Of a DNA stretch of 64,000 nt, positions 22,305-51,613 are shown in pieces (the first letter of the stretch is position 1; every line of letters starts with the position of its first letter). The stretch lies in assembly GCF_045037415.1 (NCBI RefSeq), contig NZ_CP173438.1; one strand, 5' to 3'. The DNA comes from Escherichia coli (GTDB lineage Bacteria > Pseudomonadota > Gammaproteobacteria > Enterobacterales > Enterobacteriaceae). A program made the position numbers and the translations under genes. The notes under the pieces are model-generated. The model saw only the letters and a list, made by a program, of their open reading frames with translations. It had not been told where the DNA came from and made no database searches.

Positions 22305-23264
22305 ATGAAAATTTGTATCGACGACGGCTCCACCAACATCAAGCTGGCATGGACTGAGAATGGCGAACGCCGCAACGCCATCAGCCCGAACAGCTTCAAG
22401 TCGGAATGGTCTGCGCCGTTCGGTGGCATGCAGCCCGCGAACTACATGCTTGATGGCGTGCGCTATGGTTTTGATCCGGTTAGCGATCGCTTTGTCCAGA
22501 CGACCGACACGCAATACCAGTACAGCGATGTGAATGTAATCGCCATTCATCACGCGCTGGTCAAATCAGGCATCACGCCACAGGAGGTGGATGTGGTTGT
22601 CACCCTGCCACTGAGCGAGTATTTCGACACAAACGCACAGCCGGACATGGCCAACATCAACCGCAAAAAAGCGAACGTTATGCGCCCGGTGGAATACCAG
22701 AACGGCGAAGCATTCACTATCCGTAACGTGCGGGTTATGCCTGAATCCATTCCGGCTGGCTTTAAAGCACTGGCTGACATGAGTCCGTTTGAATCCCTGC
22801 TGATTGTGGATTTAGGCGGAACCACGCTGGATGTGGCAAAGGTTCAAGGGCAACTGGCAGGTATCAGCCAGGTGTTTTGCGATCCACACGTAGGCGTTTC
22901 CCTGATGGCCGATGCCGTACTGTCGGTGATGGCCACTAACGGTATGCGCACCAGTCACCACATCGCCAATACCATTATCGAACATCGCCATGATGAAGCC
23001 TGGCTGCGCCAGCACATCCACAATGACGCGCATTACGCCAGCCTGATGGCGGTTATTCGTGAAAAGGAAGAAACACTGAAACAACGCGTGATCCGCTCGC
23101 TGGCGGTTTTTTCGGGTTACGGGCGGGTGATGGTTGTCGGTGGAGGGGCGGAGATTGTGGCACCCGCTATCCGCGAAGTCTGCGGAGTTAATGCGACTTT
23201 CATCGCGGACGGGGTGCCACAGTTTGCTCTGGTTAATGGGCTGTACGCAATGGACAAGGAGTAA
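22305..23264 (+). CDS. ParM/StbA-like actin-family partition ATPase
   Basis: MKICIDDGSTNIKLAW...ISPNSFKSEW...YSDVNVIAIHHAL...VVGGGAEI parallels recalled plasmid R1 ParM (MLVFIDDGSTNIKLQW...ISPNSFKREW...YSDVNVVAVHHAL...). Confidence 0.8.
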   Translation: MKICIDDGSTNIKLAWTENGERRNAISPNSFKSEWSAPFGGMQPANYMLDGVRYGFDPVSDRFVQTTDTQYQYSDVNVIAIHHALVKSGITPQEVDVVVTLPLSEYFDTNAQPDMANINRKKANVMRPVEYQNGEAFTIRNVRVMPESIPAGFKALADMSPFESLLIVDLGGTTLDVAKVQGQLAGISQVFCDPHVGVSLMADAVLSVMATNGMRTSHHIANTIIEHRHDEAWLRQHIHNDAHYASLMAVIREKEETLKQRVIRSLAVFSGYGRVMVVGGGAEIVAPAIREVCGVNATFIADGVPQFALVNGLYAMDKE

Positions 23265-23268
23265 ACCA

Positions 23269-23583
23269 ATGACGACACCAACCAGACGGATAAGTTTCTA
23301 TCTGAAGCCCGCCGCCGTCAAGAGTGAACAGGAGGCGTGCAATTACCTCGATAGCCTGCCAGCCTCCGAACGCAGCCGCGCGCAACGCGCGGCCTTTCTG
23401 GCTGGGCTAGCGCTCATAAAGCGCAACCCAGCATTTGCCTACTGGATGGCCGAATGGCCAGAGGACAACCTCCCCTTCAATACCGTTAGCATCAAGGAAA
23501 CATACCAGGATAATCAGCCTAGCGGAGTTGAATGCAATTTTTATAAAATAAAAAAGAATATTCAGACCTTATTCCCAGAATAA
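23269..23583 (+). CDS. ParR-like centromere-binding protein
   Basis: MTTPTRRISFYLKPAAV...LDSLPASERSRAQRAAFLAGLAL parallels recalled R1 ParR (RTIAFKLNPDV...LDSIPQGERSRLNRAALTAGLAL); directly follows the parM-like gene. Confidence 0.65.
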   Translation: MTTPTRRISFYLKPAAVKSEQEACNYLDSLPASERSRAQRAAFLAGLALIKRNPAFAYWMAEWPEDNLPFNTVSIKETYQDNQPSGVECNFYKIKKNIQTLFPE

Positions 23584-29260: not shown

Positions 29261-30097
29261 ATGGCTAATGAAAAAAAGACATCCCGCAAAAAGTTTCGCG
29301 TGGCTGTCTCCGGATCAACTGTTGATGGCCGTGAAATCAGTCCGGTGCATCTGCGTGAAGCCGCCGAGAACTTCAACCCGGATGTTTACGCTGCCCGCGT
29401 GAACGTTGAGCACTATCTCTCGCCATGTCCGTCAAGCGAATTTTCCGCAATGGGCGATGTCACCGCACTGAGTACGGAAGACATTACGGAAGGTCCGCTG
29501 GCCGGACGTACTGCGCTGTATGCAGAAATCGAACCGACCGAGCGCATGAAGCAGCTTGTCGCTGACGGCAAGAAAATCTATTCCAGTATCGAACTGCACC
29601 CGCAGTTCTCCGTTAACGGGCGCGCCTATCTGGTCGGGCTGGCGATGACCGACACCCCGGCAAGCCTGGGCACTGAGCGCCTGAAATTCACGGCACAGCA
29701 ACGTCAGGCGGTGATGACGTTCAACAGTATCCAGGGTGAAGCACCGCTTATCTCCGAAGCCATCGAGTCTGAAATCATCGAAATGGCAGAACAACGCCAG
29801 GAAGAAGGCACCCAGTGGTTTAACCGCGTAATGGGGATTATTGGTCGTGGCCGCAAAGCGGATGACGCCAGTTTCTCCCGAATTCAGGAAGCGGTGGAAG
29901 GCGTTGCAACGTCACAGGCCGACATTATCGACCGTTTTAATGTGCTGGAAACCCGCCATCAGCAGGACCGCCAGAAAATCACGTCACTGACCACAGAGCT
30001 GACAGCATTGAAGGAAAAACTGCGCACGCAGGACGGCGATCCGCAGAACCGCTTCACCGCAACGGGCGCAGCCTCCGACCAGCTGGCTGACTTCTGA
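29261..30097 (+). CDS. Capsid scaffolding protein (P2 gpO-like)
   Basis: ORF 29228..30097 trimmed to ATG 29261 with RBS agagggg (MANEKKTSRKKFRVAVSGSTVDGREISP...), similar to the recalled P2 gpO N-terminus. Confidence 0.8.
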   Translation: MANEKKTSRKKFRVAVSGSTVDGREISPVHLREAAENFNPDVYAARVNVEHYLSPCPSSEFSAMGDVTALSTEDITEGPLAGRTALYAEIEPTERMKQLVADGKKIYSSIELHPQFSVNGRAYLVGLAMTDTPASLGTERLKFTAQQRQAVMTFNSIQGEAPLISEAIESEIIEMAEQRQEEGTQWFNRVMGIIGRGRKADDASFSRIQEAVEGVATSQADIIDRFNVLETRHQQDRQKITSLTTELTALKEKLRTQDGDPQNRFTATGAASDQLADF

Positions 30098-30120
30098 TAA
30101 GACAAAGGAGCAAATTTTTT

Positions 30121-31173
30121 ATGAATCTGGTGATGTCAGATATTACCCGCAACAAGCTGGGTTGCTATATGGCGCAGCAGGCGTCGCTTAACAATATCCC
30201 GGTATCTGCACTGGTATCGCGATTTACCGTGGAACCCGCGGTGCAGCAGCGTTTTGAAAACGCCTCAAAGGAAAGTACCGAATTTACGAAAAGAATTAAC
30301 GTGATCGGCGTGACCGACCAGAAAGGCGAAAAAATCCTCCTGGACACCACCGGGCCAATTGCGCGCACGAATAGCAGTTATGACGGCATCAAACGCCGTA
30401 ACCCGAATAACGTGATCGATATGAAGTCTCGTCAGTACCAGTGCGAACAGGTGAACTACGATACCTTTATTTCGTACCCACAGCTTGATACCTGGGCGGC
30501 CCACAGCGATTTTCAGTCCCGTATCAGTACACAGATCGCCCGGCAGGTAGCGCTTGATCGCATCATGATTGGCTTTAACGGCACATCCCACGCCTACGAG
30601 TCTGATTTTCACACCAACAAGCTGCTTCAGGACGTTAACGTGGGCTGGCTGGAGCACATCAGAACCGATGCCAGCGAGCGCGTAATGAATGACGTGACGC
30701 TGACCTCCCGCAACATGGACAACACTGTGGCGCACGCGGGTAAGTATGCGAATGCCGATGCTCTGGTACAGGATGCGCGCTCATCCCTGCTGGATGAATG
30801 GCACAAGGAAGCTGACGACCTCGCGGTGATTATGGGGCGCAACCTGTTTAACTCGCTGCGTCTGCCCGTGCTGAACAGCATCAGCGGCCAGAATCCCAAT
30901 GCGGAATTACTTGCCGGGCAGCTCATCCTGTCATCGCGCACCATTGGCGGGCTGGGCGTGTTCCTTGCGCCGTTCTTCCCGGATGCAACGATGCTTATCA
31001 CCTCGTTCAACAACCTGTCGATTTACTGGCAGAAAGGTTCAATGCGTCGCCTGATGAAAGACGAGCCGGAATACAACCGCATCGCCACCTACCAGTCCAT
31101 CAATGACGCTTATGTCGTTGAAGACTATGGCAAGTGCGCGATGGTCACTGGCCTGAAGTTCGCCGACAGCTAA
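30121..31173 (+). CDS. Major capsid protein (P2 gpN-like)
   Basis: 350 aa with RBS aaaggag; follows the scaffold gene as in P2. Confidence 0.85.
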   Translation: MNLVMSDITRNKLGCYMAQQASLNNIPVSALVSRFTVEPAVQQRFENASKESTEFTKRINVIGVTDQKGEKILLDTTGPIARTNSSYDGIKRRNPNNVIDMKSRQYQCEQVNYDTFISYPQLDTWAAHSDFQSRISTQIARQVALDRIMIGFNGTSHAYESDFHTNKLLQDVNVGWLEHIRTDASERVMNDVTLTSRNMDNTVAHAGKYANADALVQDARSSLLDEWHKEADDLAVIMGRNLFNSLRLPVLNSISGQNPNAELLAGQLILSSRTIGGLGVFLAPFFPDATMLITSFNNLSIYWQKGSMRRLMKDEPEYNRIATYQSINDAYVVEDYGKCAMVTGLKFADS

Positions 31174-31218
31174 TCAACTCACGGCGGGCATCATGCCCGC
31201 CTGTAACGGAGAGAAAAA

Positions 31219-32019
31219 ATGATTACTCCTGCACAACAACACTGGCAGAACGTGATGGCACAGCGCGCAGGCCGGGCGAATGAAGGTGTGGACCACGCCG
31301 CGTGTACCGCGCATGAAGAGGTGCTGTATCGTCTGCGTCTGGCACAGGCCAGGCTAAAGGCCATACAGGCCAGAAGCGCGAAAGCCGCCATCAAAAAAGA
31401 GTTGTTGCCGGACTTTTCCGGCTGGATTGAGGGAACGCTGGAGGCTGACGGCGGGCAACAGGACGAAGTAATTGCCACGCTGATGGTGTGGGCGATTGAC
31501 TGCGGCGATCTTCCGCTGGCGCTGCGTATTGGTGCATATGTGGTCCGTCACAACCTCATCATGCCGGATAACTTTGGCCGTACTGCTGCCACGGTACTGA
31601 CCGAAGAAATCTGCAACCCGGTACTGACGCAGGCTGGGACGGATGCCGACGCGGATTTATCCGCCTTTATCGAACCACTGGACACACTTTGGGAAATTAT
31701 CGCCAACCAGGACATGCCGGACGAAGTGCGCGCCAAATTATGCAAGGCGTGTGCCTTTGCCCGTCGTGGCCTGACCGATGCAGACAACATGGCCTCATCA
31801 CTGAAGCTGCTGCGCGAAGCGATGCACCTGAACCCGAACGCAGGTGTGAAACGCGAGATTGCAACCCTTTCCCGCGCCCTGAAAAAAGCCGATTCCGCAG
31901 CCGAACCAGAAGACGCCAGCGCACAGCAGGCGCAGGACGAAAGCAGCAAAAGTAAAAAGACAACGCGGAAGCCTGCAACACGAAAAACCACCGCGACGCA
32001 GAAGGCAAAGCGCGGTTAA
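31219..32019 (+). CDS. Terminase small / endonuclease subunit (P2 gpM-like)
   Basis: 266 aa with a basic Lys/Thr-rich C-terminal tail; position after N. Confidence 0.8.
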   Translation: MITPAQQHWQNVMAQRAGRANEGVDHAACTAHEEVLYRLRLAQARLKAIQARSAKAAIKKELLPDFSGWIEGTLEADGGQQDEVIATLMVWAIDCGDLPLALRIGAYVVRHNLIMPDNFGRTAATVLTEEICNPVLTQAGTDADADLSAFIEPLDTLWEIIANQDMPDEVRAKLCKACAFARRGLTDADNMASSLKLLREAMHLNPNAGVKREIATLSRALKKADSAAEPEDASAQQAQDESSKSKKTTRKPATRKTTATQKAKRG

Positions 32020-32120
32020 CGACTGACCCCGTCAGCGGGCGGCGTGCGCGGTGTTCCGGTTTGACTCCGTGACCGTTTACACCGCGCACCCACCGCCCGA
32101 TTTTTTCAGGAGTGAACCCC

Positions 32121-32615
32121 ATGAGTATGGTTGCCAGAACTAACCCCGGCCCCGCAGAGGACGACATCACCGACACCGATGATGGCGATACCCGTATTTC
32201 AGCGGGTGCATTCTGGCCGGATATTGTGCTGCGCGAGCTGCGTCTGGCGGTACGACTGCCGGGCCGCGTGACCACCTCCCGCCTGCTGCATACCGCCACC
32301 GGGGCCATAGCACACGTTACCCGCGAGCTGGAAGCATGGCAGCAGGAACAACAGGCGGCTGGCTATCAGACGCTGGCCGATGTTCCGGCCCCTGTAATTA
32401 ACGGAGAAAGCGTCAATCTCTGGCACTGGCGCAATGCTGTTTATACCGCCACACGCGCCCTGATTCTGGAGCGTTACCGCGATGCGGACACAACGGACAA
32501 GGGCGACCGCCGGGCGGACGCACTGGATATACAGACATCGGATTTGTGGCGCGATGTGAGCTGGGCCATCTCTGACATTCTGGGACGACCGCGAATGTTT
32601 GCGGAGCTGTGCTGA
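32121..32615 (+). CDS. Head completion protein (P2 gpL-like)
   Basis: ORF 32112..32615; ATG 32121 with RBS caggag; position and size (about 165 aa) as for P2 L. Confidence 0.75.
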   Translation: MSMVARTNPGPAEDDITDTDDGDTRISAGAFWPDIVLRELRLAVRLPGRVTTSRLLHTATGAIAHVTRELEAWQQEQQAAGYQTLADVPAPVINGESVNLWHWRNAVYTATRALILERYRDADTTDKGDRRADALDIQTSDLWRDVSWAISDILGRPRMFAELC

Positions 32616-32815
32616 TGAAAGTGAAGGCACTGGAAGGCGACACCGTGGATTCGCTCTGTTTCCGGTACTACGGCACGACACAGGGCGTCACCGAAAAGGT
32701 GCTGGATGCCAACCCCGGACTCTGTCAGCAGGTATTTCTGGACGCCGGGCAGGAAGTGGAGATGCCGGAGCCGGAGAAGAAGAAACGAGAAATGATTCAG
32801 TTGTGGGGGGAGTAG
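32615..32815 (+). CDS. Tail protein X (P2 gpX-like)
   Basis: ATG 32615 overlapping the L stop; MKVKALEGDTVDSLCFRYYGTTQGVTEKVLDANPGL..., about 66 aa. Confidence 0.75.
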   Translation: MKVKALEGDTVDSLCFRYYGTTQGVTEKVLDANPGLCQQVFLDAGQEVEMPEPEKKKREMIQLWGE

Positions 32816-32817
32816 CA

Positions 32818-33141
32818 GTGAGCACCATTCAAACAGGGATCACAGAGCAGGTTATTGCGTGGCTCTTTGACCACCTGCCAACGGTGTATGCAGTAGGCGC
32901 GGCGGTCAGCATTTCCGCGCTGATGAGTCTTTATGACGGACGAACACTGGTTCAGACCGTAACGGGATCGCTGGCGTGCGGCGTTCTTGCCATGGCCGTG
33001 GCCGGGTCGCTGCGCTTCTTCGGGATCCCTGAGGATGCAGTGACGTTTTTTGGTGCCTCAATCGGTTTTATGGGCGCAGAGAAAGCACGCGACAAGGTTA
33101 TTGCAATATTTGATCGCAGGGTGAAGGAGAGGAACGAATGA
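32818..33141 (+). CDS. Holin
   Basis: GTG start after RBS ggggggag; about 107 aa with hydrophobic helices; directly upstream of the endolysin. Confidence 0.65.
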   Translation: MSTIQTGITEQVIAWLFDHLPTVYAVGAAVSISALMSLYDGRTLVQTVTGSLACGVLAMAVAGSLRFFGIPEDAVTFFGASIGFMGAEKARDKVIAIFDRRVKERNE

Positions 33142-33530
33142 GCAACACATTTAAATTCAGCAGCCGGAGCGAAAAGAATTTGCAGGGTGTAAATCCTGAT
33201 CTGGTGAAAGTGACCCGACGGGCGCTGGAAATCTCGGAAGTGGATTTTGGTATCACCGAAGGATTGCGCAGTCGTTATCGTCAGAAGCAGCTCGTGACCA
33301 CAGGCAAGAGCCAGACCATGAACAGTCGCCATCTCACAGGGCATGCCGTGGATGTTGTGGCTTATGTCGGCAACCAGGTGTCATGGGAATGGCCGCTGTA
33401 CGAAAAAATCGCAGCAGCATTCAGACAGGCCAGCCAGGAACTGAATATTCCGGTGGAATGGGGCGGCGACTGGAAGACCCTGAAAGACGGACCGCATTTT
33501 CAGTTACCACACGGAGCCTATCCGGCATGA
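33138..33530 (+). CDS. Endolysin, peptidase M15-type (L-alanyl-D-glutamate endopeptidase family)
   Basis: 130 aa; metal-binding pattern SRHLTGHAVDV is typical of M15 peptidases; ATGA-coupled to holin and Rz. Confidence 0.7.
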   Translation: MSNTFKFSSRSEKNLQGVNPDLVKVTRRALEISEVDFGITEGLRSRYRQKQLVTTGKSQTMNSRHLTGHAVDVVAYVGNQVSWEWPLYEKIAAAFRQASQELNIPVEWGGDWKTLKDGPHFQLPHGAYPA

Positions 33531-33922
33531 AGCTCTGGCCCACGCTTGGCGTCGCTTTCCTTCTGATTACATCCATGCGTCTGTCGTGGTCGCTGGGCCG
33601 GGAGAACGCCAGAAACGAAGCGCAGGCCAGCACCCTGAAAAGTACCGTCGACACACTGAATATCATCAGCGCCGGGGTACAGGATATGCAGCAGGTGCTG
33701 GCTCAGCTCCGCGCGGAAAATCAGCAACGCAATCAGGACGGAGAGGTAAGACGTGAACAGCTACGCAACGATATTGCAAAAGATGAATGCGCCCACGCTT
33801 TGCCTGACGCTCGTTTTACTGACAGGTTGCGCAGGCACGCAGAACGCGCCAGGGCCAGCGCCGTCAGTCCGGCTTATACCGCAGACGCTGACCATGCCGG
33901 TAACGCCTCCCCCCTTCCCTGA
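33527..33922 (+). CDS. Rz-like i-spanin (LysB-like)
   Basis: N-terminal TM (MKLWPTLGVAFLLITSMRL) followed by a coiled-coil-like region. Confidence 0.65.
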   Translation: MKLWPTLGVAFLLITSMRLSWSLGRENARNEAQASTLKSTVDTLNIISAGVQDMQQVLAQLRAENQQRNQDGEVRREQLRNDIAKDECAHALPDARFTDRLRRHAERARASAVSPAYTADADHAGNASPLP

Positions 33923-34064
33923 CCCACCCACATGGGGAAACCTCGGAATATGGGGCGACCGCCTTCTGGATGCACTGGAAACCTGTAACGCGGATAAACG
34001 GGCCATTGCTGAACTGGATAAGAGAATAGCCGAACTGACACACCAGACGGGAGTAACACAATGA
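33783..34064 (+). CDS. Rz1-like o-spanin lipoprotein (LysC-like), overlapping the Rz frame
   Basis: Lipobox LLTGC in MNAPTLCLTLVLLTGCAGT; Pro-rich mature part; begins inside Rz in another frame. Confidence 0.6.
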   Translation: MNAPTLCLTLVLLTGCAGTQNAPGPAPSVRLIPQTLTMPVTPPPFPDPPTWGNLGIWGDRLLDALETCNADKRAIAELDKRIAELTHQTGVTQ

Positions 34065-35938
34065 CCAGTAAGAACTTTGCACTGATTACAGCCATGACAC
34101 AGGCTGAACTGACTCAAAAGGTGAATGAACATCTTGCGAAAGGGTGGCATCTTCAGGGGGAGACGCGGGTTGCCTACGAACCCGGCACCCCGTGGTATCT
34201 AATGCAGGCAATGGTGGCCGATGGCACTACAGACATCTCACCTGATTCCCCCCAGCACGGCAGCGTGCCGGAGTGGTATTACGTGGTGGTACTTGCTGGT
34301 CAATCCAATGCCATGTCATATGGTGAGGGAATGCCGCTGCCGGATTCTTACGATGCGCCCCACCCACGCATTAAGCAACTGGCCCGTCGCAACACAGTGA
34401 CTCCCGGTGGTAAAGCATGCGCATTTAACGACATCATTCCGGCAGACCACTGCCTGCATGATGTTCAGGATATGAGCGCACTGAATCACCCGAATGCAGA
34501 CCTGAGCAAAGGGCAGTATGGCTGTGTCGGACAGGGCTTGCATATTGCCAAACGCCTGTTGCCTTACATTCCACAGAATGCCGGGATTTTACTGGTTCCA
34601 TGCTGTCGTGGTGGTTCGGCATTCACCCAGGGCGCGGAGGGGACATTCAGCGAGTCCACAGGAGCCAGTCAGGATTCGGCTCGCTGGGGTGTGGGTAAAC
34701 CTTTATATCAGGACCTGATTTTGCGCACGAAGGCCGCATTGCAGAAAAACCCAAAAAACATGCTGCTGGCCGTATGCTGGATGCAGGGCGAATTTGACAT
34801 GAGCGCCGCTACGTACTCACAGCAACCTCCGCTGTTTACGGCCATGCTGAAACAGTTTCGTGCGGACATTACCGAGTTTAACACGCAGTGTCATGGAGGC
34901 AGAGCGGCAAGTGTGCCATGGATTTGTGGTGACACGACGTATTACTGGAAAAACACCTACGGCACGCAGTACGACACCATTTACGGGGCGTACAAAAACA
35001 GGGAGAGCGACAACGTTTTCTTTGTGCCGTTCCTGACCGATGGTAGTGGCAACAATACCTCCACCAACGCACCAACGGAAGATCCGGATGCTGCAAGTGA
35101 GGGATATTACGGTTCGGCATCCCGAACGAACAAAAACTGGGTATCATCAAATCGCCAGACGCATTTCAGCTCATGGGCGCGTCGTGGCATTATTCCCGAT
35201 CGTATGGCAACCGCTATTCTGAACGTAGCCGGTCGCACCTTAGCCTTCATCAGTGGTAAGGCACCGGAAATCAAACCCTCGCCCGGCGGCGACACGCCAT
35301 CGGGGCCGTCTGAAGATGCATCCGTACGCACAATCTCCCTGTTGCCGACAGCCGGAGATGCTGCTGCGCAGGGCTGGAGCATTAAGAATGGCGGAATTCA
35401 GTTGTCAGAGGGTGTATTTAAGATCACCAAGCAGAGCAATAAAGCCTGGTCCCTGACGCGCCCGGTGGATGACGCAGTCTCCCTGCTGACACGGGGTGGC
35501 AGACTGAGCTGTAAGTTTCGACTGTCAGGCGCACTGACCAACAATCAGTTCGGTCTGGGAATTTATCTGTATACCGATGTAGCGTTACCTGACGTCGTGG
35601 CGATGACCGGGACTGGTAACCCGTTCCTGATGTCGTTCTTCACCCAGACCACAGACGGCAAACTGAATCTGATGCATCACAAGAAAGCAGGAAACACAAA
35701 GTTGGGCGAGTTCGGGAATTACAGTAACGACTGGCAGACGCTGGAGCTGGTGTTCACCGCCGGCAGTGCCACGGTTACTCCGAAACTGAATGGAGTGGCT
35801 GGCCCGGCATTCCAGGTCATAAAAGACAGTCTGACACTGGGGCTGAATGCGCTGACGTTAACTGATATCACTAAAAATGCCGCGTACGGCGTCGATATCG
35901 GCAGCCTGGTGCTGGAAATCAATAATCCCGCAGCATAA
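34061..35938 (+). CDS. NanS-p-like sialate O-acetylesterase (DUF1737 N-domain plus SGNH/SASA esterase domain)
   Basis: 625 aa; N-terminus MTSKNFALITAMTQAELTQKVNEHLAKGWHLQGE resembles the DUF1737 start of prophage NanS-p proteins; GQSNAMSYGEG is the esterase active-site block. Confidence 0.7.
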   Translation: MTSKNFALITAMTQAELTQKVNEHLAKGWHLQGETRVAYEPGTPWYLMQAMVADGTTDISPDSPQHGSVPEWYYVVVLAGQSNAMSYGEGMPLPDSYDAPHPRIKQLARRNTVTPGGKACAFNDIIPADHCLHDVQDMSALNHPNADLSKGQYGCVGQGLHIAKRLLPYIPQNAGILLVPCCRGGSAFTQGAEGTFSESTGASQDSARWGVGKPLYQDLILRTKAALQKNPKNMLLAVCWMQGEFDMSAATYSQQPPLFTAMLKQFRADITEFNTQCHGGRAASVPWICGDTTYYWKNTYGTQYDTIYGAYKNRESDNVFFVPFLTDGSGNNTSTNAPTEDPDAASEGYYGSASRTNKNWVSSNRQTHFSSWARRGIIPDRMATAILNVAGRTLAFISGKAPEIKPSPGGDTPSGPSEDASVRTISLLPTAGDAAAQGWSIKNGGIQLSEGVFKITKQSNKAWSLTRPVDDAVSLLTRGGRLSCKFRLSGALTNNQFGLGIYLYTDVALPDVVAMTGTGNPFLMSFFTQTTDGKLNLMHHKKAGNTKLGEFGNYSNDWQTLELVFTAGSATVTPKLNGVAGPAFQVIKDSLTLGLNALTLTDITKNAAYGVDIGSLVLEINNPAA

Positions 35939-35961
35939 GGAAGAGCAGGAGAGCAAAACAG

Positions 35962-36429
35962 ATGCTTAAGACAAACAGTCTGCGAGAGTCCATGCTTCAT
36001 GGGTGTCGGTGGTGCCAGGCTAATCCCGAGAAATTCACCATTTTCGTGGAGAGCGGCAACATTGAAACGACCGGAGAAGCGCCCTCGTTTGTTTACCGCT
36101 ATCAGATGGTGATGTTTGTCATGGATTACGCCGGAGAGCTGGACGACCTCACGCTGCCGCTGCTGGCGTGGTTATCCGAAAATCAGCCACAGTTGTTGCT
36201 CAATCCGGAGCGTAATCAGGACATCAAATTTTCTGCCGTTATCAATGACGATGACAGCGCCGATCTCCTGTTTACGCTCCCCCTGCGGGAACGCGTTCGC
36301 ATCACGCGCAACAGTCAGGGCACACCGCAGGCAGAACACCTGCCGGAGCCAAAACCCCGTCTGCCTTCTTCCGAAGGCGACTGGTCGCATGTATTCCAGG
36401 ATGTGACGTGGGGTGAAAGCGATGGATAA
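35962..36429 (+). CDS. Tail completion protein (P2 gpR-like)
   Basis: 155 aa, same as P2 R; position before S-V-W-J-I. Confidence 0.75.
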   Translation: MLKTNSLRESMLHGCRWCQANPEKFTIFVESGNIETTGEAPSFVYRYQMVMFVMDYAGELDDLTLPLLAWLSENQPQLLLNPERNQDIKFSAVINDDDSADLLFTLPLRERVRITRNSQGTPQAEHLPEPKPRLPSSEGDWSHVFQDVTWGESDG

Positions 36430-37057
36430 GGCATTCACCCGCGTGGATGAAACCTTTGAGGCTATCCGCGACAGCCTGAATCAGCAGGCCATCAATAACA
36501 TCGCCAGAAAGCTGGCACAGGATTTACGTCGCGCCCAGCAGGCACGTATCCGGTCACAAAAAGCGCCGGACGGGACCGAATGGACACCACGCAGACGCCG
36601 CGTAACCCGGATACAGGAGCGCATTCGCTTTATCTGGAATAACGAAGCACGCACGCTGAAAAACTGGCATCACGACACAGGGAAATACGGGCGAACCATT
36701 ACCGGGTGGGATGAGGATAAAAACAATATCCGCACGTTTTACCGGGATGACATCGACCGTTTTCTGGAAATACGCACCCGGCGCATCAACCAGGACAGCA
36801 CAAAGCGCGTCCCCATGTTCGTAAAACTGCGCACCGCCCGCTACCTGAAAGCCCGTGCAGATGCCTCCGGTGTGACGGTGGGTTACAGCGGCGTGGCCGC
36901 ACGTATTGCACGCGTTCATCAGTTCGGTGAGCGCGATCAGGTTGCGCCGGGCATTTTCACCGATTACCCGGTACGTGAGCTGTTGGGTATCAGCCAGGCA
37001 GATGAGCGCCTGATTTATAACACGGTGCTGGGCCGGATTGCGGAGGCTGTACGGTGA
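36413..37057 (+). CDS. Tail completion / virion morphogenesis protein (P2 gpS-like)
   Basis: 214 aa; follows R and overlaps its end. Confidence 0.7.
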   Translation: MKAMDKAFTRVDETFEAIRDSLNQQAINNIARKLAQDLRRAQQARIRSQKAPDGTEWTPRRRRVTRIQERIRFIWNNEARTLKNWHHDTGKYGRTITGWDEDKNNIRTFYRDDIDRFLEIRTRRINQDSTKRVPMFVKLRTARYLKARADASGVTVGYSGVAARIARVHQFGERDQVAPGIFTDYPVRELLGISQADERLIYNTVLGRIAEAVR

Positions 37058-37635
37058 GCGCAGAACTCATGCGACTGCTGAGCAACATCATCCGCACCGG
37101 GATCATCTCTGAAGTTGATGAGAAGTCCTGGCGCGTGCGCGTTCGCAGCGGCGAACTGGAAACAGGCTGGTTGCGCTGGAACACCACGCGCGCGGGAGCC
37201 TTCAATGTGTGGCTGCCGCCATCACCAGGCGAACAGGTGGTAATTGCCTGCATTGGCGGCAACCCGGAAACCGCCATGATAATTGGCAGCCTGTGGAGTG
37301 ATGCCAGTCCGGCCCCCGGCAAAAGCCTGAAAGAAATCGTGGTCAGCGCGCCGGATGGCGCGGTGTTCCGCTACGACGCAGACGCTGGCGCACTGAGCGC
37401 CAGCGGCATGAAAACAGCCACCCTGCAGGCATCCGTCAGCGTGACACTGGATACGCCCGTCGTGGAATGCACAAACCTTCTGAGAACGGCGACGCTTGAC
37501 GTCACAAAAGAGGGAAAGATGAGCGGCAATATCACGCACAGCGGCGGCAATTTCACCTCAAACGGCATTACCGTGCATACGCATAAGCACGGTGGCGTTA
37601 AAGGTGGCAGCGATTCGACAGGAGGCCCGCAGTGA
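37054..37635 (+). CDS. Baseplate assembly protein V (spike, P2 gpV-like)
   Basis: 193 aa; GTG start after RBS ggagg; synteny. Confidence 0.8.
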   Translation: MSAELMRLLSNIIRTGIISEVDEKSWRVRVRSGELETGWLRWNTTRAGAFNVWLPPSPGEQVVIACIGGNPETAMIIGSLWSDASPAPGKSLKEIVVSAPDGAVFRYDADAGALSASGMKTATLQASVSVTLDTPVVECTNLLRTATLDVTKEGKMSGNITHSGGNFTSNGITVHTHKHGGVKGGSDSTGGPQ

Positions 37636-39407: not shown

Positions 39408-41393
39408 ATGAGTACCACAACACGTAAATTTAAAACCGTTATCACCGATACGGGTGCCAAAAAATTAGCTCAGGCAGCCGCGCCAGATGGTAAGCCTGTC
39501 CGCCTGACTCATATGGCCGTGGGCGACGGTGGCGGCACGTTGCCCACACCAGACAGTAAGCAGACCCGTCTGGTGCATGAGGTGTGGCGACATACTGTTA
39601 ATCGCGTCATCCTGGACGCAACACATCAGAACCGCATTATTGCGGAGCTGGTTATTCCTCCTGAAACGGGCGGATTCTGGATCCGGGAAATTGGTGTATT
39701 TGATGAGCACGGCGATTTAATCGCGGTGGGCAATACTGCCGAAAGTTACAAGCCAGCCGTTGCCGAAGGGTCCGGTCGTGCACAAACATTTCGCACCATT
39801 CTGACCGTATCCAGCACTGCCACCGTGGTGCTTACCGTGGATAACACCATGGTGATGGCCACAGTGGATTACGTGGATGACAAACTGAAAGAGCATGAAC
39901 AGTCACGACGTCACCCGGACGCCTCGCTGACCGCAAAAGGCTTTGTTCAACTCAGTAGCGCCACTAACAGCGTGTCTGAAACGCAGGCTGCAACGCCGAA
40001 AGCAGTAAAGGCCGCGTATGACCTTGCTAACGGTAAATATACTGCGCAGGATGCCAGCACGACGCGAAAAGGCCTTGTCCAGCTCAGTAGCGCCACCAAC
40101 AGCACGTCTGAAACGCAGGCTGCAACGCCGAAAGCAGTAAAGGCCGCGTATGACCTTGCTAACGCAAAATATACCGCTCAGGACGCCACGACGGCACAAA
40201 AAGGGATAGTCCAGCTCAGTAGTGCCACCAACAGCACGTCTGAAACACTGGCCGCGACATCGAAAGCTGTTAAGGCGGTAATGGATGAAACGAACAAGAA
40301 AGCGCCCTTAAATAGTCCTGCACTGACCGGAACGCCAACAACACCAACTGCGCGACAGGGAACGAATAATACCCAAATCGCAAGCACGGCTTTCGTTATG
40401 GCTGCGATTGCCGCCCTTGTAGATTCGTCACCTGATGCACTGAACACGCTGAACGAGCTGGCTGCGGCGCTGGGCAACGACCCGAATTTTGCGACCACCA
40501 TGACTAACGCGCTTGCGGGTAAGCAACCGAAAGATGCCACCCTGACGGCGCTGGCCGGACTTACTACTGCGGCAGGCAAGTTTCCGTATTTTACGGGGAA
40601 TGATGTCGCCAGCCTGGCAACCCTGACAAAAGTCGGGCGGGATATTCTTGCGAAATCGACCGTTGCTGCCGTTATCGAATACCTCGGTTTACGAGAACTC
40701 GGCACAAGCGGGGAGAAAATACCGTTACTCAGTACAGCGAATACCTGGACCAATCGACAAACATTCAGCGGTGGCCTTTCTGGGGAACTGTCCGGCAATG
40801 CCGCTACTGCAACAAAGCTGAAAACAGCACGAAAAATTGCTGGAGTTGGTTTTGATGGTTCTAGCGATATTTCAATTAGTGCCAAAAATGTCAATGCATT
40901 TGCACTCCGACAAACAGGTAATACTGTTAATGGTGATACATCCGTTGGATGGAATTGGGATAGTGGTGCATATAACGCCATGATTGGTGGTGCATCTGCA
41001 TTAATTCTTCACTTTAATATAAATGCTGGTAGCTGTCCTGCCGTACAATTCCGTGTGAATTATAAAAATGGTGGCATTTCCTACAGGTCGGCTCGTGATG
41101 GTTATGGGTTTGAATTAGGTTGGTCAGATTTCTATACCACGACACGAAAACCTTCAGCGGGAGATGTTGGTGCATATACGCGGACAGAATGTAACTCAAG
41201 GTTTATTACAGGTATTCGCCTTGGCGGTCTGTCATCTGTTCAGACATGGAATGGTCCCGGCTGGTCTGACAGGTCAGGTTATGTCGTTACGGGTTCAGTT
41301 AACGGAAACCGTGATGAATTAATTGATACAACACAGGCAAGGCCAATTCAGTATTGCATTAATGGGACGTGGTATAACGCGGGGAGTATTTAA
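39408..41393 (+). CDS. Tail fibre protein (P2 gpH-like); C-terminal third lies inside the invertible segment
   Basis: 661 aa; internal 44-aa tandem repeats; the gix-like crossover site at 40672..40697 lies inside the gene. Confidence 0.85.
   Translation: MSTTTRKFKTVITDTGAKKLAQAAAPDGKPVRLTHMAVGDGGGTLPTPDSKQTRLVHEVWRHTVNRVILDATHQNRIIAELVIPPETGGFWIREIGVFDEHGDLIAVGNTAESYKPAVAEGSGRAQTFRTILTVSSTATVVLTVDNTMVMATVDYVDDKLKEHEQSRRHPDASLTAKGFVQLSSATNSVSETQAATPKAVKAAYDLANGKYTAQDASTTRKGLVQLSSATNSTSETQAATPKAVKAAYDLANAKYTAQDATTAQKGIVQLSSATNSTSETLAATSKAVKAVMDETNKKAPLNSPALTGTPTTPTARQGTNNTQIASTAFVMAAIAALVDSSPDALNTLNELAAALGNDPNFATTMTNALAGKQPKDATLTALAGLTTAAGKFPYFTGNDVASLATLTKVGRDILAKSTVAAVIEYLGLRELGTSGEKIPLLSTANTWTNRQTFSGGLSGELSGNAATATKLKTARKIAGVGFDGSSDISISAKNVNAFALRQTGNTVNGDTSVGWNWDSGAYNAMIGGASALILHFNINAGSCPAVQFRVNYKNGGISYRSARDGYGFELGWSDFYTTTRKPSAGDVGAYTRTECNSRFITGIRLGGLSSVQTWNGPGWSDRSGYVVTGSVNGNRDELIDTTQARPIQYCINGTWYNAGSI
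39937..40290 (+). repeat. Three tandem 132-bp (44-codon) repeats within the tail-fibre gene
   Basis: Units begin at about 39937, 40069 and 40201, each encoding KG-VQLSSATNS-SETQAATPKAVKAAYDLAN-KYTAQDA; the third is diverged. Confidence 0.75.
40672..40697. promoter_or_regulatory. gix/cix-like invertase crossover site (left)
   Basis: ttatcgaatacctcggtttacgagaa, compared with recalled Mu gixL TTATCCAAAACCTCGGTTTACAGGAA; in inverted orientation to the site at 43420..43445. Confidence 0.7.
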
Positions 41394-41395
41394 CG

Positions 41396-41929
41396 ATGAT
41401 GCACTTAAAAAACATTACTGCTGGCAACCCTAAAACAAAAGAGCAATACCAGCTAACAAAGCAATTTAACATCAAATGGCTTTATTCAGCTGATGGAAAA
41501 AACTGGTATGAGGAACAAAAGAATTTCCAGCCAGACACTTTGAAAATGGTCTATGACCATAACGGCGTTATTATTTGTATTGAAAAGGATGTTTCAGCAA
41601 TTAATCCGGAAGGCGCAAGCGTCGTTGAATTACCTGATATTACAGCAAATCGCCGGGCTGATATTTCGGGGAAATGGATGTTCAAAGATGGCGTAGTGGT
41701 AAAGCGAACTTATACCGAGGAAGAGCAGAGGCAACAAGCGGAAAATGAAAAGCAGAGCCTGTTGCAACTTGTCAGGGATAAAACTCAGCTATGGGACTCA
41801 CAGCTACGGCTGGGCATCATTTCCGACGAGAATAAACAAAAATTAACCGAGTGGATGCTCTATGCGCAGAAAGTCGAATCCACAGACACCTCCAGCCTGC
41901 CAGTAACATTTCCCGAACAACCTGAATGA
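41396..41929 (+). CDS. Tail fibre assembly chaperone (P2 gpG-like), variant 1
   Basis: 177 aa, [40 protein letters not shown]... Confidence 0.8.
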   Translation: MMHLKNITAGNPKTKEQYQLTKQFNIKWLYSADGKNWYEEQKNFQPDTLKMVYDHNGVIICIEKDVSAINPEGASVVELPDITANRRADISGKWMFKDGVVVKRTYTEEEQRQQAENEKQSLLQLVRDKTQLWDSQLRLGIISDENKQKLTEWMLYAQKVESTDTSSLPVTFPEQPE

Positions 41930-41957
41930 GACAAGGCCCGATAACGGGCCTTAATTT

Positions 41958-42485
41958 TTATTCAGGCTTTTGTGGCCATTCAGGATTTGCCGTATCCACA
42001 CGGTTGACCAGAACACTGTAGCGTTCCCATGCTTCCAGTCGTGTGCGTTCCTCGTCTGTTGCCATATTCAGCCTGACAGCGCGTTCCAGCGGCTGGATGA
42101 CTGATTCAGCTTCGGAAAGCAATGCGGCCTTTTGTGATTCGGCCTGTTGTTGCTGTTCGTCAGCCGTATAAATCCGTTTAACCACAGCTCCGTCCTTAAA
42201 CATCCACTTACCGGAATCATCGGTCCGACGATTGGCCGTTATATCGGGAACCTCGACGACGCTAAAACCTTCGGGATTAAGCGTGGAGGCATCTCTGGTG
42301 ATGGCGACAATAATATTATTTTCATCGTAAACAATCTTTATGGTGTCTGGCTGAAAGTTTTTCACTTCCTCATACCAGTTTTTTCCGTCCTCAGAGTAAA
42401 GCCAGATAACTCCGTGTTTCTTTGTTAACTCATACTGTTCCAGTGTTTTAGCATTACCCGCTTTTATGTTCTTTAAGTGCATCAT
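41958..42485 (-). CDS. Tail fibre assembly chaperone, variant 2 (alternative cassette)
   Basis: 175 aa, [40 protein letters not shown]...; a paralogue of the + strand G gene inside the invertible segment. Confidence 0.8.
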
Positions 42486-42486
42486 A

Positions 42487-43419
42487 TTAAACGCTCGCTA
42501 CATTATACCAGGTGCCATTTATATACTTTTGAACGGGTCTGTAATAAACACCCGCTATATTATCGGCAGAGTTAGACCCTGTATCCTGAACATTAATACC
42601 AGACAATACATGACCTGAAGGGCACTGGAAATTCCATGTTCGCCAGTTGTTCACTCCATAATATTGCTGTGAACCAAGTCGAACATCTTTCACATAACGG
42701 GAATCAAAGTTACCGTAATCCGAGGGATTAACACGCCCCGTAATATTTATGGTCTTATTACTTTGAATGCTTCCGGGAACAAAGCGCATAACATGGACGT
42801 AATTAGCATAAACATCCAGATTACCATCGCCATTTTGTTTAAAGCCCGTGTCATTATCACCCAATACAATCGAATTACCGCCAAGAGCACTGGATGTTCC
42901 GATACCCAGTGCACCATTCAGTTGACCACCAGATAACGGCAGTGCACCAACATCTCCTGCTGAAGGTTTTCTGGTGGTGGTGTAAAATTCGGACCAGTCG
43001 GCTTCAAAACCATAACCATCACGGGCTGAACGATAAAAAATACCGCCATTTTTATAATTAATCCGAAACTGAGCTGCAGGACAACTTCCGTCTCCCATAT
43101 AAAAATGAATAATTAACGTTGATGCACCACCAATATTTGCGTTATAGGCTCCGCTACTCCAGTTCCATCCAACTGCTTTATCATTCGCAACGGTGCTTCC
43201 TGTTTTCCCTAAGGCAAACGCACCAACATGACTTGCTTTTAATGTGATATCGGAGGAACCATCAAAAGCCACATTGCTTATTTTCCTGGCAGTTTTTAAT
43301 TTTGCAGCTGTAGAAGCATTGCCGGATAGTTCACCAGAAAGGCCACCGCTGAATGTTTGTCGATTAGTCCAGGTATTCGCTGTACTGAGTAACGGTATTT
43401 TCTCCCCGCTTGTGCCGAG
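42487..43419 (-). other. Promoterless alternative tail-fibre C-terminal cassette
   Basis: ORF 42487..43272 is the in-frame part; the reverse complement of 43300..43420 nearly repeats H codons at about 40700..40800; expressed only after inversion. Confidence 0.65.
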
Positions 43420-43445
43420 TTCTCGTAAACCGAGGTTTTAAATAA
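43420..43445. promoter_or_regulatory. gix/cix-like invertase crossover site (right)
   Basis: ttctcgtaaaccgaggttttaaataa, compared with recalled Mu gixR TTCCTGTAAACCGAGGTTTTGGATAA. Confidence 0.7.
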
Positions 43446-43499
43446 TGGCCGTTTCTGGCCTGCATGGCATGATTTGCGCTTTTGGACGGGAGATTCAGT

Positions 43500-44099
43500 G
43501 TGCTGATTGGCTATGTAAGGGTATCAACAAATGACCAGAATACAGACCTGCAACGAAACGCTCTTGTTTGTGCAGGATGTGAACAAATATTTGAAGATAA
43601 ATTAAGCGGGACAAAGACAGACCGACCGGGATTAAAACGCGCTTTAAAGCGCCTTCAAAAAGGTGACACGCTGGTTGTCTGGAAACTGGATCGCCTCGGG
43701 CGAAGCATGAAACATCTGATTTCTCTCGTCGGGGAACTACGGGAGCGAGGGATTAATTTTCGCAGTCTGACCGACAGCATAGACACATCTTCTCCAATGG
43801 GGCGTTTTTTCTTCCACGTGATGGGTGCCCTGGCTGAAATGGAACGTGAATTAATTGTTGAACGTACACTGGCCGGGCTGGCGGCAGCGCGCGCAAGGGG
43901 GCGCACAGGCGGACGTCGACCGAAGCTGACAAAAGAACAGCATGAGCAAATAGCAAGGCTAATCAAAAACGGGCACGACAGAAAACAACTGGCAATAATT
44001 TACGGCATTGGCACATCGACGATTTATCGTTATCACCCTGTAGGCGATATACAGACTGAAGAAACAACCGGGCAGACTCAGGAAAATGAAAACCGCTAA
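43500..44099 (+). CDS. Serine DNA invertase (Gin/Pin/Cin/Hin family)
   Basis: GTG start gives MLIGYVRVSTNDQNTDLQRNALVCAGCEQIFEDKLSG..., close to recalled Gin/Pin; catalytic Ser in VRVSTNDQ. Confidence 0.85.
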   Translation: MLIGYVRVSTNDQNTDLQRNALVCAGCEQIFEDKLSGTKTDRPGLKRALKRLQKGDTLVVWKLDRLGRSMKHLISLVGELRERGINFRSLTDSIDTSSPMGRFFFHVMGALAEMERELIVERTLAGLAAARARGRTGGRRPKLTKEQHEQIARLIKNGHDRKQLAIIYGIGTSTIYRYHPVGDIQTEETTGQTQENENR

Positions 44100-51472: not shown

Positions 51473-51613
51473 ATGTCGCAAAAATCGCTTACGGCCATCA
51501 CATTCTGCGTGACGGCAATCCTCATCATCTGGATGCTGCACGGTTCGCTGTGTGAAATACGGATGAGTTTCTGGGGAGCGGAGTTTGCGGCGTTCTTACA
51601 GTGTAAGCAGTAA
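51473..51613 (+). CDS. Hok/Gef-family type I toxin (46 aa), with overlapping mok-like frame 51370..51555
   Basis: MSQKSLTAITFCVTAILIIWMLHGSLCEIRMSFWGAEFAAFLQCKQ: N-terminal TM then the SLCEIR signature and an E-AAF block as in Hok; RBS aggag. Confidence 0.6.
   Translation: MSQKSLTAITFCVTAILIIWMLHGSLCEIRMSFWGAEFAAFLQCKQ

Follow-up and report, generated by a model that had tools for sequence, protein, structure and literature searches.

The window, as we call the whole stretch of 64,000 nucleotides of Escherichia coli DNA that was analysed, carries an apparently intact P88-like prophage (Xuanwuvirus, Peduoviridae) in the dmsA/serS interval. Its lysis cassette lies in a late structural operon of the P2 type, between gpX and gpR, with gpX directly upstream as in P2 (Table 1). 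The open reading frames of gpM and of every cassette gene are uninterrupted. By blastp the M, L, X, R and S proteins are just 26-48% identical in amino acids to those of P2, so the phage is not a close relative of P2. The cassette is 100% identical to that of E. coli 4/1-1, phage vB_EcoM-569R5 and phage 705R2.

The four genes of the cassette are translationally coupled. The stop of the holin gene overlaps the start of the endolysin gene in the sequence ATGA, the stop of the endolysin gene overlaps the start of the Rz gene in the same way, and so does the stop of the LysC-family gene with the start of the esterase gene that follows it. At the level of protein families the cassette is a mosaic: it joins a lambda-type holin, a peptidase of the T5/RB49/ChiX type and a P2-type o-spanin. 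Open reading frames on the minus strand (e.g. 32952-33344 and 33761-34150) were set aside as antisense to well-supported genes. The sole match of an Rfam scan of both strands over 31000-37500 was a meaningless sub-threshold miRNA. A promoter and terminator scan of 32000-36500 gave a count not above that of shuffled sequence; we claim no regulatory signal within the cassette, and no equivalent of the lysC attenuator of P2.

Table 1. Features of the lysis cassette and its neighbours, in window coordinates
Feature	Position	Strand	Evidence
gpX (tail protein X)	32609..32815	+	Pfam Phage_tail_X E=9e-21; 48% aa identity to P2 X
Holin, 107 aa, lambda-S family	32818..33141	+	Pfam PF05106 Phage_holin_3_1 E=4e-19; PHROG 126
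Exchanged module: endolysin ORF, last ~12 holin codons, first ~7 Rz codons	33105..33547		blastn break points, junction alignments
M15C endolysin, 130 aa	33138..33530	+	Pfam PF13539; PHROG 465; PDB matches
i-spanin (Rz equivalent), 131 aa	33527..33922	+	PHROG 214 'Rz-like spanin' E=1.5e-39
o-spanin (Rz1/LysC family)	33753..34064	+	Pfam PF23793 LysC E=1.2e-13; 31% identity to P2 LysC, E=5e-6
NanS-p-type sialate O-acetylesterase, 625 aa (DUF1737 + SASA + DUF6645)	34061..35938	+	Pfam; PDB NanS 3PT5 1.7e-125, NanS-p 6YP6 1.7e-29

The endolysin and its catalytic residues

The first-pass annotation had read the second gene of the cassette as an M15 peptidase endolysin from a metallopeptidase block, SRHLTGHAVDV. 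That reading is confirmed by evidence that goes beyond a chance motif. The open reading frame is intact, and in the Pfam profile search its product scores 47 bits against Peptidase_M15_4 (PF13539, E=4e-12), for which the cut-off is 25. It matches PHROG 465, 'endolysin', at E=3.7e-76. With Serratia marcescens ChiX (PDB 5OPZ) it shares 61% identity over 126 aa, gap-free, at E=7e-48; the other PDB matches are 8Q2G (2e-45) and 2MXZ of T5 (6e-22), and the protein is 62% identical to M15C peptidase 23RI. Profile searches gave no match to any lysozyme or transglycosylase family, and blastp found no similarity to P2 gpK.

The block itself is present as S63-R-H65-L-T-G-H-A-V-D72-V, encoded at 33324-33356. 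Alignment identifies the zinc ligands as H65 (33330-32), D72 (33351-53) and H120 (33495-97), and the catalytic D117 and the conserved W112 complete the set of catalytic residues. H65/D72/H120/D117 align without gaps to H68/D75/H123/D120 of ChiX, an L-Ala-D-Glu endopeptidase by experiment, in which H68/D75/H123 bind zinc and D120 is essential (PMC5778951). With W112 included, they align equally without gaps to H62/D69/H117, D114 and W109 of EndoRB49 (PMC10487532). Judged by its sequence, then, the protein is a real M15C zinc peptidase. The gap-free identity to 5OPZ covers 126 of its 130 residues, so a predicted LAS fold is safe to assume.

EndoRB49 and EndoT5 (PDB 8Q2G, 2MXZ, 8P3A) resemble the window enzyme in being single-domain globular proteins of ~130 aa with an H-x6-D...D-x2-H arrangement and a conserved Trp. 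They differ between themselves in one respect that bears on regulation. In T5 a Ca2+-binding loop of ~13 residues separates the Trp from the catalytic Asp, whereas RB49, ChiX and the window enzyme have only 4 residues there (W112-KTLK-D117 in the window). Since the calcium loop of T5 is absent, regulation by Ca2+ is not expected, and the enzyme is predicted to be Ca2+-independent. ChiX, the closest solved homologue, serves non-lytic chitinase secretion and not phage lysis. It is encoded on the chromosome, in chiWXYZ, whereas the window endolysin lies in a prophage; our comparison of chiWXYZ proteins with those of the window covered ChiX.

The bond cut by the enzyme is predicted to be L-Ala-D-Glu, by transfer from homologues of 61% identity whose activity has been measured (PMC5778951, PMC10487532). 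The name of the Pfam family reads 'D-alanyl-D-alanine carboxypeptidase'. If that description of PF13539 were taken at its word, and homologues are so annotated in some phage records, the protein would be a member of M15 of the VanY/DD-carboxypeptidase type that trims D-Ala-D-Ala. We believe this is very improbable, because the nearest characterised relatives (ChiX at 61%, the RB49 type at ~60%, and T5) are all L-Ala-D-Glu endopeptidases biochemically, and a DD-carboxypeptidase would not lyse cells.

The protein also appears, from its sequence and surroundings, to be an endolysin of the canonical type: cytoplasmic, signal-less and encoded next to holin and spanin genes of a late operon. Its highest hydropathy over 15 residues is 0.61 (KD), and it has no hydrophobic segment. 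The RefSeq annotation lists no second muralytic gene in the prophage. RefSeq already names the gene 'M15 family metallopeptidase' in E. coli genomes, the GenBank record of P88 (KP063541 / NC_026014; AIZ95139 = YP_009113074) has 'endolysin; Peptidase M15', and the P88 endolysin was included in a published M15_C alignment (PMC10487532). The enzyme class, structure, mechanism and occurrence in P88-type phages are thus on record, and there is nothing new in the endolysin. The first-pass annotation was correct in essence about a feature that is ordinary and already known.

Holin, spanins and the predicted course of lysis

The holin is a lambda-S-family protein, scoring 69 bits against PF05106, where the cut-off is 23.8 and lambda S itself scores 105 bits; the two proteins are both 107 aa long and match pairwise at E=4e-5. 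Its gene begins with GTG and has GGGGGAG ahead of the start. The dual-start (Met-Lys-Met) motif is absent, for the N-terminus reads V/M-STIQTGITEQ, with neither a second start codon nor a basic residue. A hydropathy scan too crude to count the transmembrane domains exactly shows several hydrophobic segments. The P2 holin, gpY, belongs to PF04550, and blastp gave no match between it and the window holin at E<10.

The cassette had been described as P2-like in its holin and in its layout, and it is here that the description has to be taken apart. When all cassette proteins were compared by blastp with P2 Y, K, LysA, LysB and LysC, only LysC was matched, so we have dropped the idea of a P2-like holin. 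P2 (NC_001895) has the order Y-K-lysA-lysB-lysC and shares with the window the position of the cassette after gpX in the late operon. Its K is a lambda-R-type enzyme (55% identical to lambda R, PDB 1AM7), whereas the window enzyme is an M15 peptidase. P2 also has lysA; in the window there is no open reading frame between the endolysin and Rz genes, and blastp with P2 LysA found no counterpart. What stands of the P2-like layout is the o-spanin and the geometry of the overlapping spanin genes.

The i-spanin has an N-terminal membrane anchor by hydropathy. It has no blastp match to P2 LysB, and it falls below the cut-off for Pfam DUF2570. P2 LysB belongs to PHROG 89 and matches PHROG 214, the family of the window Rz, weakly (2e-4). 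Relative to P88 and PhiSM the anchor of the window Rz has a deletion of 4 codons, which shortens the hydrophobic stretch enclosed by K2 and R18 to only 15 residues. The o-spanin scores 51 bits against PF23793, with a cut-off of 27. It lies in the +1 frame of Rz, as LysC does in P2, and has the lipobox LLTGC and 11.7% Pro. Its start is ambiguous: GTG at 33753 (with the SD sequence GGAGAGG), ATG at 33783, or 33804, the RefSeq choice. Neither Pfam Rz1 (PF06085) nor Phage_lysis (PF03245), both of which match lambda, has a match in the window cassette.

The first-pass annotation had placed the endolysin, Rz and an embedded Rz1 within 33138-34064. All three are there, but Rz1 is not embedded, since Rz ends at 33922 while Rz1 continues for another 142 nt, to 34064. 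The two genes overlap by 140-170 nt; in P2 the overlap is 146 nt and the extension 145 nt. The geometry is that of the overlapped lysB/lysC type of P2 and not that of the lambda type, in which Rz1 is embedded.

We propose that lysis would proceed as follows. When the late phase ends, the holin would permeabilise the inner membrane, and the soluble endolysin would thereby be released to the periplasm. There the zinc-dependent M15C (LAS-type) L-alanyl-D-glutamate endopeptidase would sever the stem peptides of peptidoglycan from its glycan strands. The two-component spanin, made of the membrane-anchored Rz equivalent and the LysC-family lipoprotein, would then disrupt the outer membrane. Dependence on the holin and actual lysis are predicted. 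Families, catalytic residues and gene order, like the exchange with GH108 and the prevalence described below, are direct observations, and we are very confident of the overall explanation, that this is a P88-type lysis cassette with an M15C L-Ala-D-Glu endolysin as an exchangeable module.

The esterase insertion at the 3' end

P88 has the same gene order as the window from X through holin, M15 endolysin and Rz to LysC. The amino acid identities are 96.9% for the endolysin, 92.5% for the holin and 93.3% for Rz, and the two are ~95% identical in nucleotides over 29601-34008. Apart from the anchor codons that the window Rz lacks, the difference lies at the end of the cassette. In P88 LysC is followed directly by gpR. 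In the window an insertion of 1995 nt (34009-36003, by break points against P88) stands between them, where it replaces 93 nt of P88 and gives LysC a different C-terminus over its final ~16-20 residues. It carries a NanS-p-type esterase gene, which we regard as a more interesting neighbour than the endolysin.

The presence of this gene gives some appeal to the idea that the peptidase is not a lysis enzyme at all but works as ChiX does, alongside a holin-like channel with which the lysogen would release a protein such as the adjacent esterase without lysis. The esterase is secretable and its gene is translationally coupled to the cassette. ChiX, to which the enzyme is 61% identical, works in chitinase secretion with ChiW, a single-start holin-like protein of the lambda-S family, and with two spanin-like genes (PMC4259817), and the window holin likewise lacks the dual-start motif. 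However, the cassette is placed between gpX and gpR, among the late structural genes of a P2-type prophage, and it holds the only annotated muralytic gene, so that the phage would otherwise have no endolysin. P88, which shares this cassette, can be induced by mitomycin and forms plaques (PMC5285337), and it has no esterase gene. We judge non-lytic release to be highly unlikely and keep to the reading of the gene as the phage's endolysin.

Over its catalytic and C-terminal parts the esterase shares 86% identity with the copies that lambdoid (Stx-type) prophages carry, but over the N-terminal DUF1737 only 29%. A tblastn search of a phage collection with this N-terminal domain found only three P88-like phages, those with the insertion, and a 5.8-billion-protein index returned near-identical fragments only. 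In phi24B DUF1737 is reported to be the capsid-anchoring domain (2026 cryo-EM preprint). In this sub-lineage the NanS-p insertion has also remodelled the cassette at its 3' end, and its DUF1737 is lineage-specific. We suggest tentatively, and at odds we would call rather poor, that this swapped domain fits a P2-type capsid. If it does, the virions of these very common E. coli prophages would bear a mucin-active esterase on their surface.

Exchange of the endolysin gene

The modularity of the lysis enzyme, which the first-pass annotation had claimed, is borne out by a comparison within the genus of the window phage. Citrobacter phage PhiSM (Shae_phiSM, OR565851), a live temperate phage (PMC6456863), has a holin 88% and an Rz 89% identical in amino acids to those of the window. 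Its endolysin slot is filled by an unrelated muramidase of 181 aa, Glyco_hydro_108 + PG_binding_3 by Pfam scan, which follows a spacer of 54 nt and has its own ribosome-binding site. In 32 E. coli genomes, too, a gene of this type fills the slot that the same holin and Rz genes enclose. The flanks of the versions that carry GH108 are ~93-97% identical to the window in nucleotides (~95%). Homology to PhiSM breaks at ~33104 and ~33548, inside the 3' end of the holin gene and the 5' end of the Rz gene. The endolysin gene is exchanged independently, as a module of its own, and the swap can be seen directly.

The M15 peptidase had also been said to stand in place of a P2 gpK-type lysozyme. We believe P2 is the wrong comparison partner here, for the phage belongs to Xuanwuvirus, the P88 group, and in that group M15 is the majority state. 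Of the 5426 complete E. coli genomes, 1012 (about 19%) carry the gene, against the 32 with GH108, and M15 is probably the resident allele of the P88 lineage as well. That a gpK-type enzyme was replaced cannot be shown.

One may still ask whether the M15 gene was imported recently, displacing a muramidase of the GH108 or lambda-R/gpK type in the immediate ancestor of this prophage. Enzymes of this type do circulate among unrelated phage groups. Endolysins 74-77% identical to that of the window have unrelated holins and spanins as neighbours in 9NA, phiP27, Mu-like prophages and a Serratia lambdoid prophage, and the holin partners of this peptidase are of at least 3-4 types: the lambda-S family in the window, Phage_holin_8 + Phage_holin_3_7 in phiP27, and a protein without family in 9NA. 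The GC content of the endolysin gene (0.529) is below that of holin (0.552), Rz (0.588) and gpX (0.570), a modest dip that would fit an import but that we do not count as evidence of which way the gene moved, and the sharp breaks against PhiSM would also suit an import. Yet M15 outnumbers GH108 by 1012 genomes to 32. Within E. coli the M15 allele has itself diverged, with 264 genomes at 90-95% nucleotide identity, to about the degree seen in its flanks, and this points to a long residence. The M15 gene is tightly coupled by an ATGA overlap on each side, and it is the GH108 allele, with its spacer and separate ribosome-binding site, that looks like the insert. A recent import of M15 seems to us unlikely.

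The practical value of the endolysin is limited: it is a small, single-domain, probably Ca-independent, predicted L-Ala-D-Glu peptidase in about a fifth of complete E. coli genomes. Its locus is a textbook case of mosaicism at the level of modules, in which near-identical flanks enclose an M15 peptidase gene in some phages and a GH108 muramidase gene in others.

The enzyme and its standing

We agree with the first-pass annotation that the 130-aa protein is an M15 peptidase endolysin, which it proposed from the block S63-RH65LTGHAVD72-V (33324-33356). The protein reaches 47 bits with Pfam Peptidase_M15_4 (E=4e-12; the cut-off is 25 bits) and E=3.7e-76 with PHROG 465 'endolysin', and no glycosidase family matches it in Pfam and PHROG profile searches. 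A search of solved structures brings up ChiX from Serratia marcescens (5OPZ, E=7e-48; 61% identity over 126 residues without gaps), the M15C peptidases 23RI and 8Q2G, and the T5 endolysin (2MXZ, E=6e-22). The residues that EndoRB49 uses, H62/D69/H117, D114 and W109 (PMC10487532), align with H65, D72, H120, D117 and W112. In the T5 enzyme a Ca2+-binding loop separates the Trp from the catalytic Asp. This loop is absent here, so we infer an enzyme without calcium regulation. A hydropathy scan finds no hydrophobic segment, so the endolysin should be cytoplasmic and dependent on the holin. The feature is real and in all likelihood functional.

It is also already known. The gene is 'endolysin; Peptidase M15' in the GenBank record of phage P88 and 'M15 family metallopeptidase' in RefSeq, and a published M15_C alignment includes the P88 protein (PMC10487532). 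P88 is inducible and plaque-forming, and its paper calls the lysin 'phylogenetically distinct' and says nothing further (PMC5285337). Of 5426 complete E. coli genomes, 1012 carry the gene with a nucleotide identity of at least 90%. Since it is both very common and annotated, its interest is low.

A cassette that is not P2's

The ORF listing and direct reading give a dense run of genes from gpL to gpS, all on the same strand, with ATGA overlaps between neighbours at 33138, 33527 and 34061. No Rfam family matches the cassette region, and a scan of the region gives promoter-like and terminator-like sites at no higher frequency than shuffled sequence does.

Genes of the late region around the lysis cassette
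Feature	Coordinates	Remarks
gpL	32112-32615	
gpX	32609-32815	
107-aa membrane protein (holin)	32818-33141	GTG start, GGGGGAG ahead
130-aa ORF (endolysin)	33138-33530	
131-aa ORF (i-spanin, Rz)	33527-33922	anchor at N-terminus
Proline-rich lipoprotein ORF (o-spanin)	33753 or 33783 to 34064	+1 frame relative to the 131-aa ORF
625-aa ORF (esterase)	34061-35938	+ strand
gpR	35962-36429	
gpS	36413-37057	

The cassette around the enzyme had been described as P2-like, with an embedded Rz1, and here we disagree. The holin belongs to PF05106 (69 bits), as does lambda S (105 bits), which is of equal length and matches it pairwise at E=4e-5. P2 gpY belongs to a different family, PF04550, and blastp finds no similarity between it and the window holin. 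P2 lysA has no counterpart in the cassette. The i-spanin falls in PHROG 214 (E=1.5e-39), and blastp does not match it to P2 LysB. The o-spanin matches Pfam LysC (51 bits), has the lipobox LLTGC and 11.7% proline, and is 31% identical to P2 LysC. Its gene starts within Rz but ends 142 nt beyond it, which is the geometry of P2 lysB/lysC (overlap 146 nt, extension 145 nt), so it is 'overlapped' rather than 'embedded'.

P2 gpK is 55% identical to lambda R, so P2 joins its own holin to a lambda-type enzyme, whereas this phage joins a lambda-type holin to a T5/RB49/ChiX-type enzyme. P2 was the wrong reference: the structural proteins beside the cassette share just 26-48% identity with those of P2, and the phage thus belongs to a separate P2-like genus.

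The N-terminal membrane anchor of the i-spanin carries a 12-nt (4-codon) deletion at 33566-33567 (Rz codons ~14-15). It reads LLIT-SMRL where P88 and the Citrobacter phage PhiSM have LLIAGWGTSMRL, and only 15 hydrophobic residues are left between K2 and R18. This variant is common, with 250 genomes at least 99% identical across the cassette.

The endolysin slot as an exchange module

PhiSM, of the same genus, is 95.5% identical to the window up to 33104 and 93.4% identical from 33548. Between these breaks, which fall about 12 codons upstream of the holin stop and about 7 codons inside Rz, it has an unrelated 181-aa gene with Glyco_hydro_108 and PG_binding_3 domains, and 32 E. coli genomes have this GH108 version. 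As had been suggested, the lysis enzyme can be swapped as a module, and the exchange is directly demonstrable, with GH108 as the partner and not the gpK-type enzyme that the first-pass annotation had named. PhiSM is a live temperate phage (PMC6456863), so both alleles work. The GH108 allele has a 54-nt spacer ahead of it, whereas the M15 allele has ATGA coupling on both sides. This tight coupling, the 1012:32 ratio and the diversification of the M15 allele favor M15 over GH108 as the resident allele, although the slightly lower GC of the endolysin gene (0.529) is a weak counterpoint.

Endolysins 74-77% identical to this one occur in phages unrelated to it, namely siphovirus 9NA, phiP27 (an Stx2e phage), Mu-like prophages and a lambdoid prophage of Serratia. 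The family is very large, with 1309 phage records and no fewer than 7890 protein clusters (E<=1e-20). By blastp the holins of 9NA and phiP27 do not match the window holin, nor do the spanins compared from the 9NA, phiP27, Mu-like and Serratia phages match ours. The phiP27 holins are Phage_holin_8 and Phage_holin_3_7, the 9NA protein labelled as a holin has no match to a holin family, and the Mu-like loci inspected yielded no holin.

A cassette of the same four families (Phage_holin_3_1, Peptidase_M15_4, DUF2570, LysC) lies at 5655-6930 of L007, the lambdoid prophage locus on the chromosome of Serratia sp. P2ACOL2; this lambda-type prophage has a Q antiterminator, Nu1/GpA terminase and gpW. Its endolysin is 74% identical to ours but its holin only 27%, and its spanins have no similarity detectable by blastp.

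The prophage and its esterase insertion

Over 1.5 kb the region matches E. coli chromosomes (e.g. that of strain 4/1-1) and the phages vB_EcoM-569R5 and 705R2 at 100% identity, and P88 and other Xuanwuvirus members at ~95%. The 4/1-1 prophage aligns with the window at 99.6%, between dmsA and serS (~13.3-51.6 kb). The gpM ORF (terminase small/endonuclease subunit) is intact at 31219-32019, but in 4/1-1 it is interrupted by a nonsense codon (Q to stop) and carries a pseudogene annotation, so the functional copy looks to be that of the window. RefSeq annotation transfer places a ParM-type segregation pair in the early region (~22305-23583) and a Hok/Gef toxin gene at the serS-proximal end (~51473-51613). 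A 2.78-kb segment (40668-43449), which holds the tail-fibre assembly genes together with the 3' portion of the tail-fibre gene, is inverted relative to 4/1-1 and adjoins a recombinase gene (~43500-44099). The segment resembles an invertible host-range switch of the Mu G / P1 C type in the other orientation.

Between lysC and gpR the window has 1995 nt (34009-36003) where P88 has 93 nt. The insert encodes a NanS-p-type sialate O-acetylesterase (DUF1737, SASA and DUF6645) that matches NanS (1.7e-125) and the NanS-p C-domain (1.7e-29) in the PDB. The LysC tail takes 16 new residues from the insertion; over 34009-34064 it ends ...KRAIAELDKRIAELTHQTGVTQ, while P88 and PhiSM have ...KRAIELLEQRRLQRLNNEDNNHAEN. 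A query of 33900-36100, running from the 3′ end of Rz/LysC across the esterase into gpR, finds this arrangement in 372 complete E. coli genomes. A lambdoid prophage copy shares 86% identity over residues 69-625, the catalytic and C-terminal portions, but only 29% over residues 1-68, the DUF1737 part. In searches of the phage collection and protein index, this N-terminal variant is confined to this lineage. According to a 2026 preprint, the phi24B esterase binds the capsid through its DUF1737 domain, which raises the possibility that P2-type virions may be decorated with esterase.
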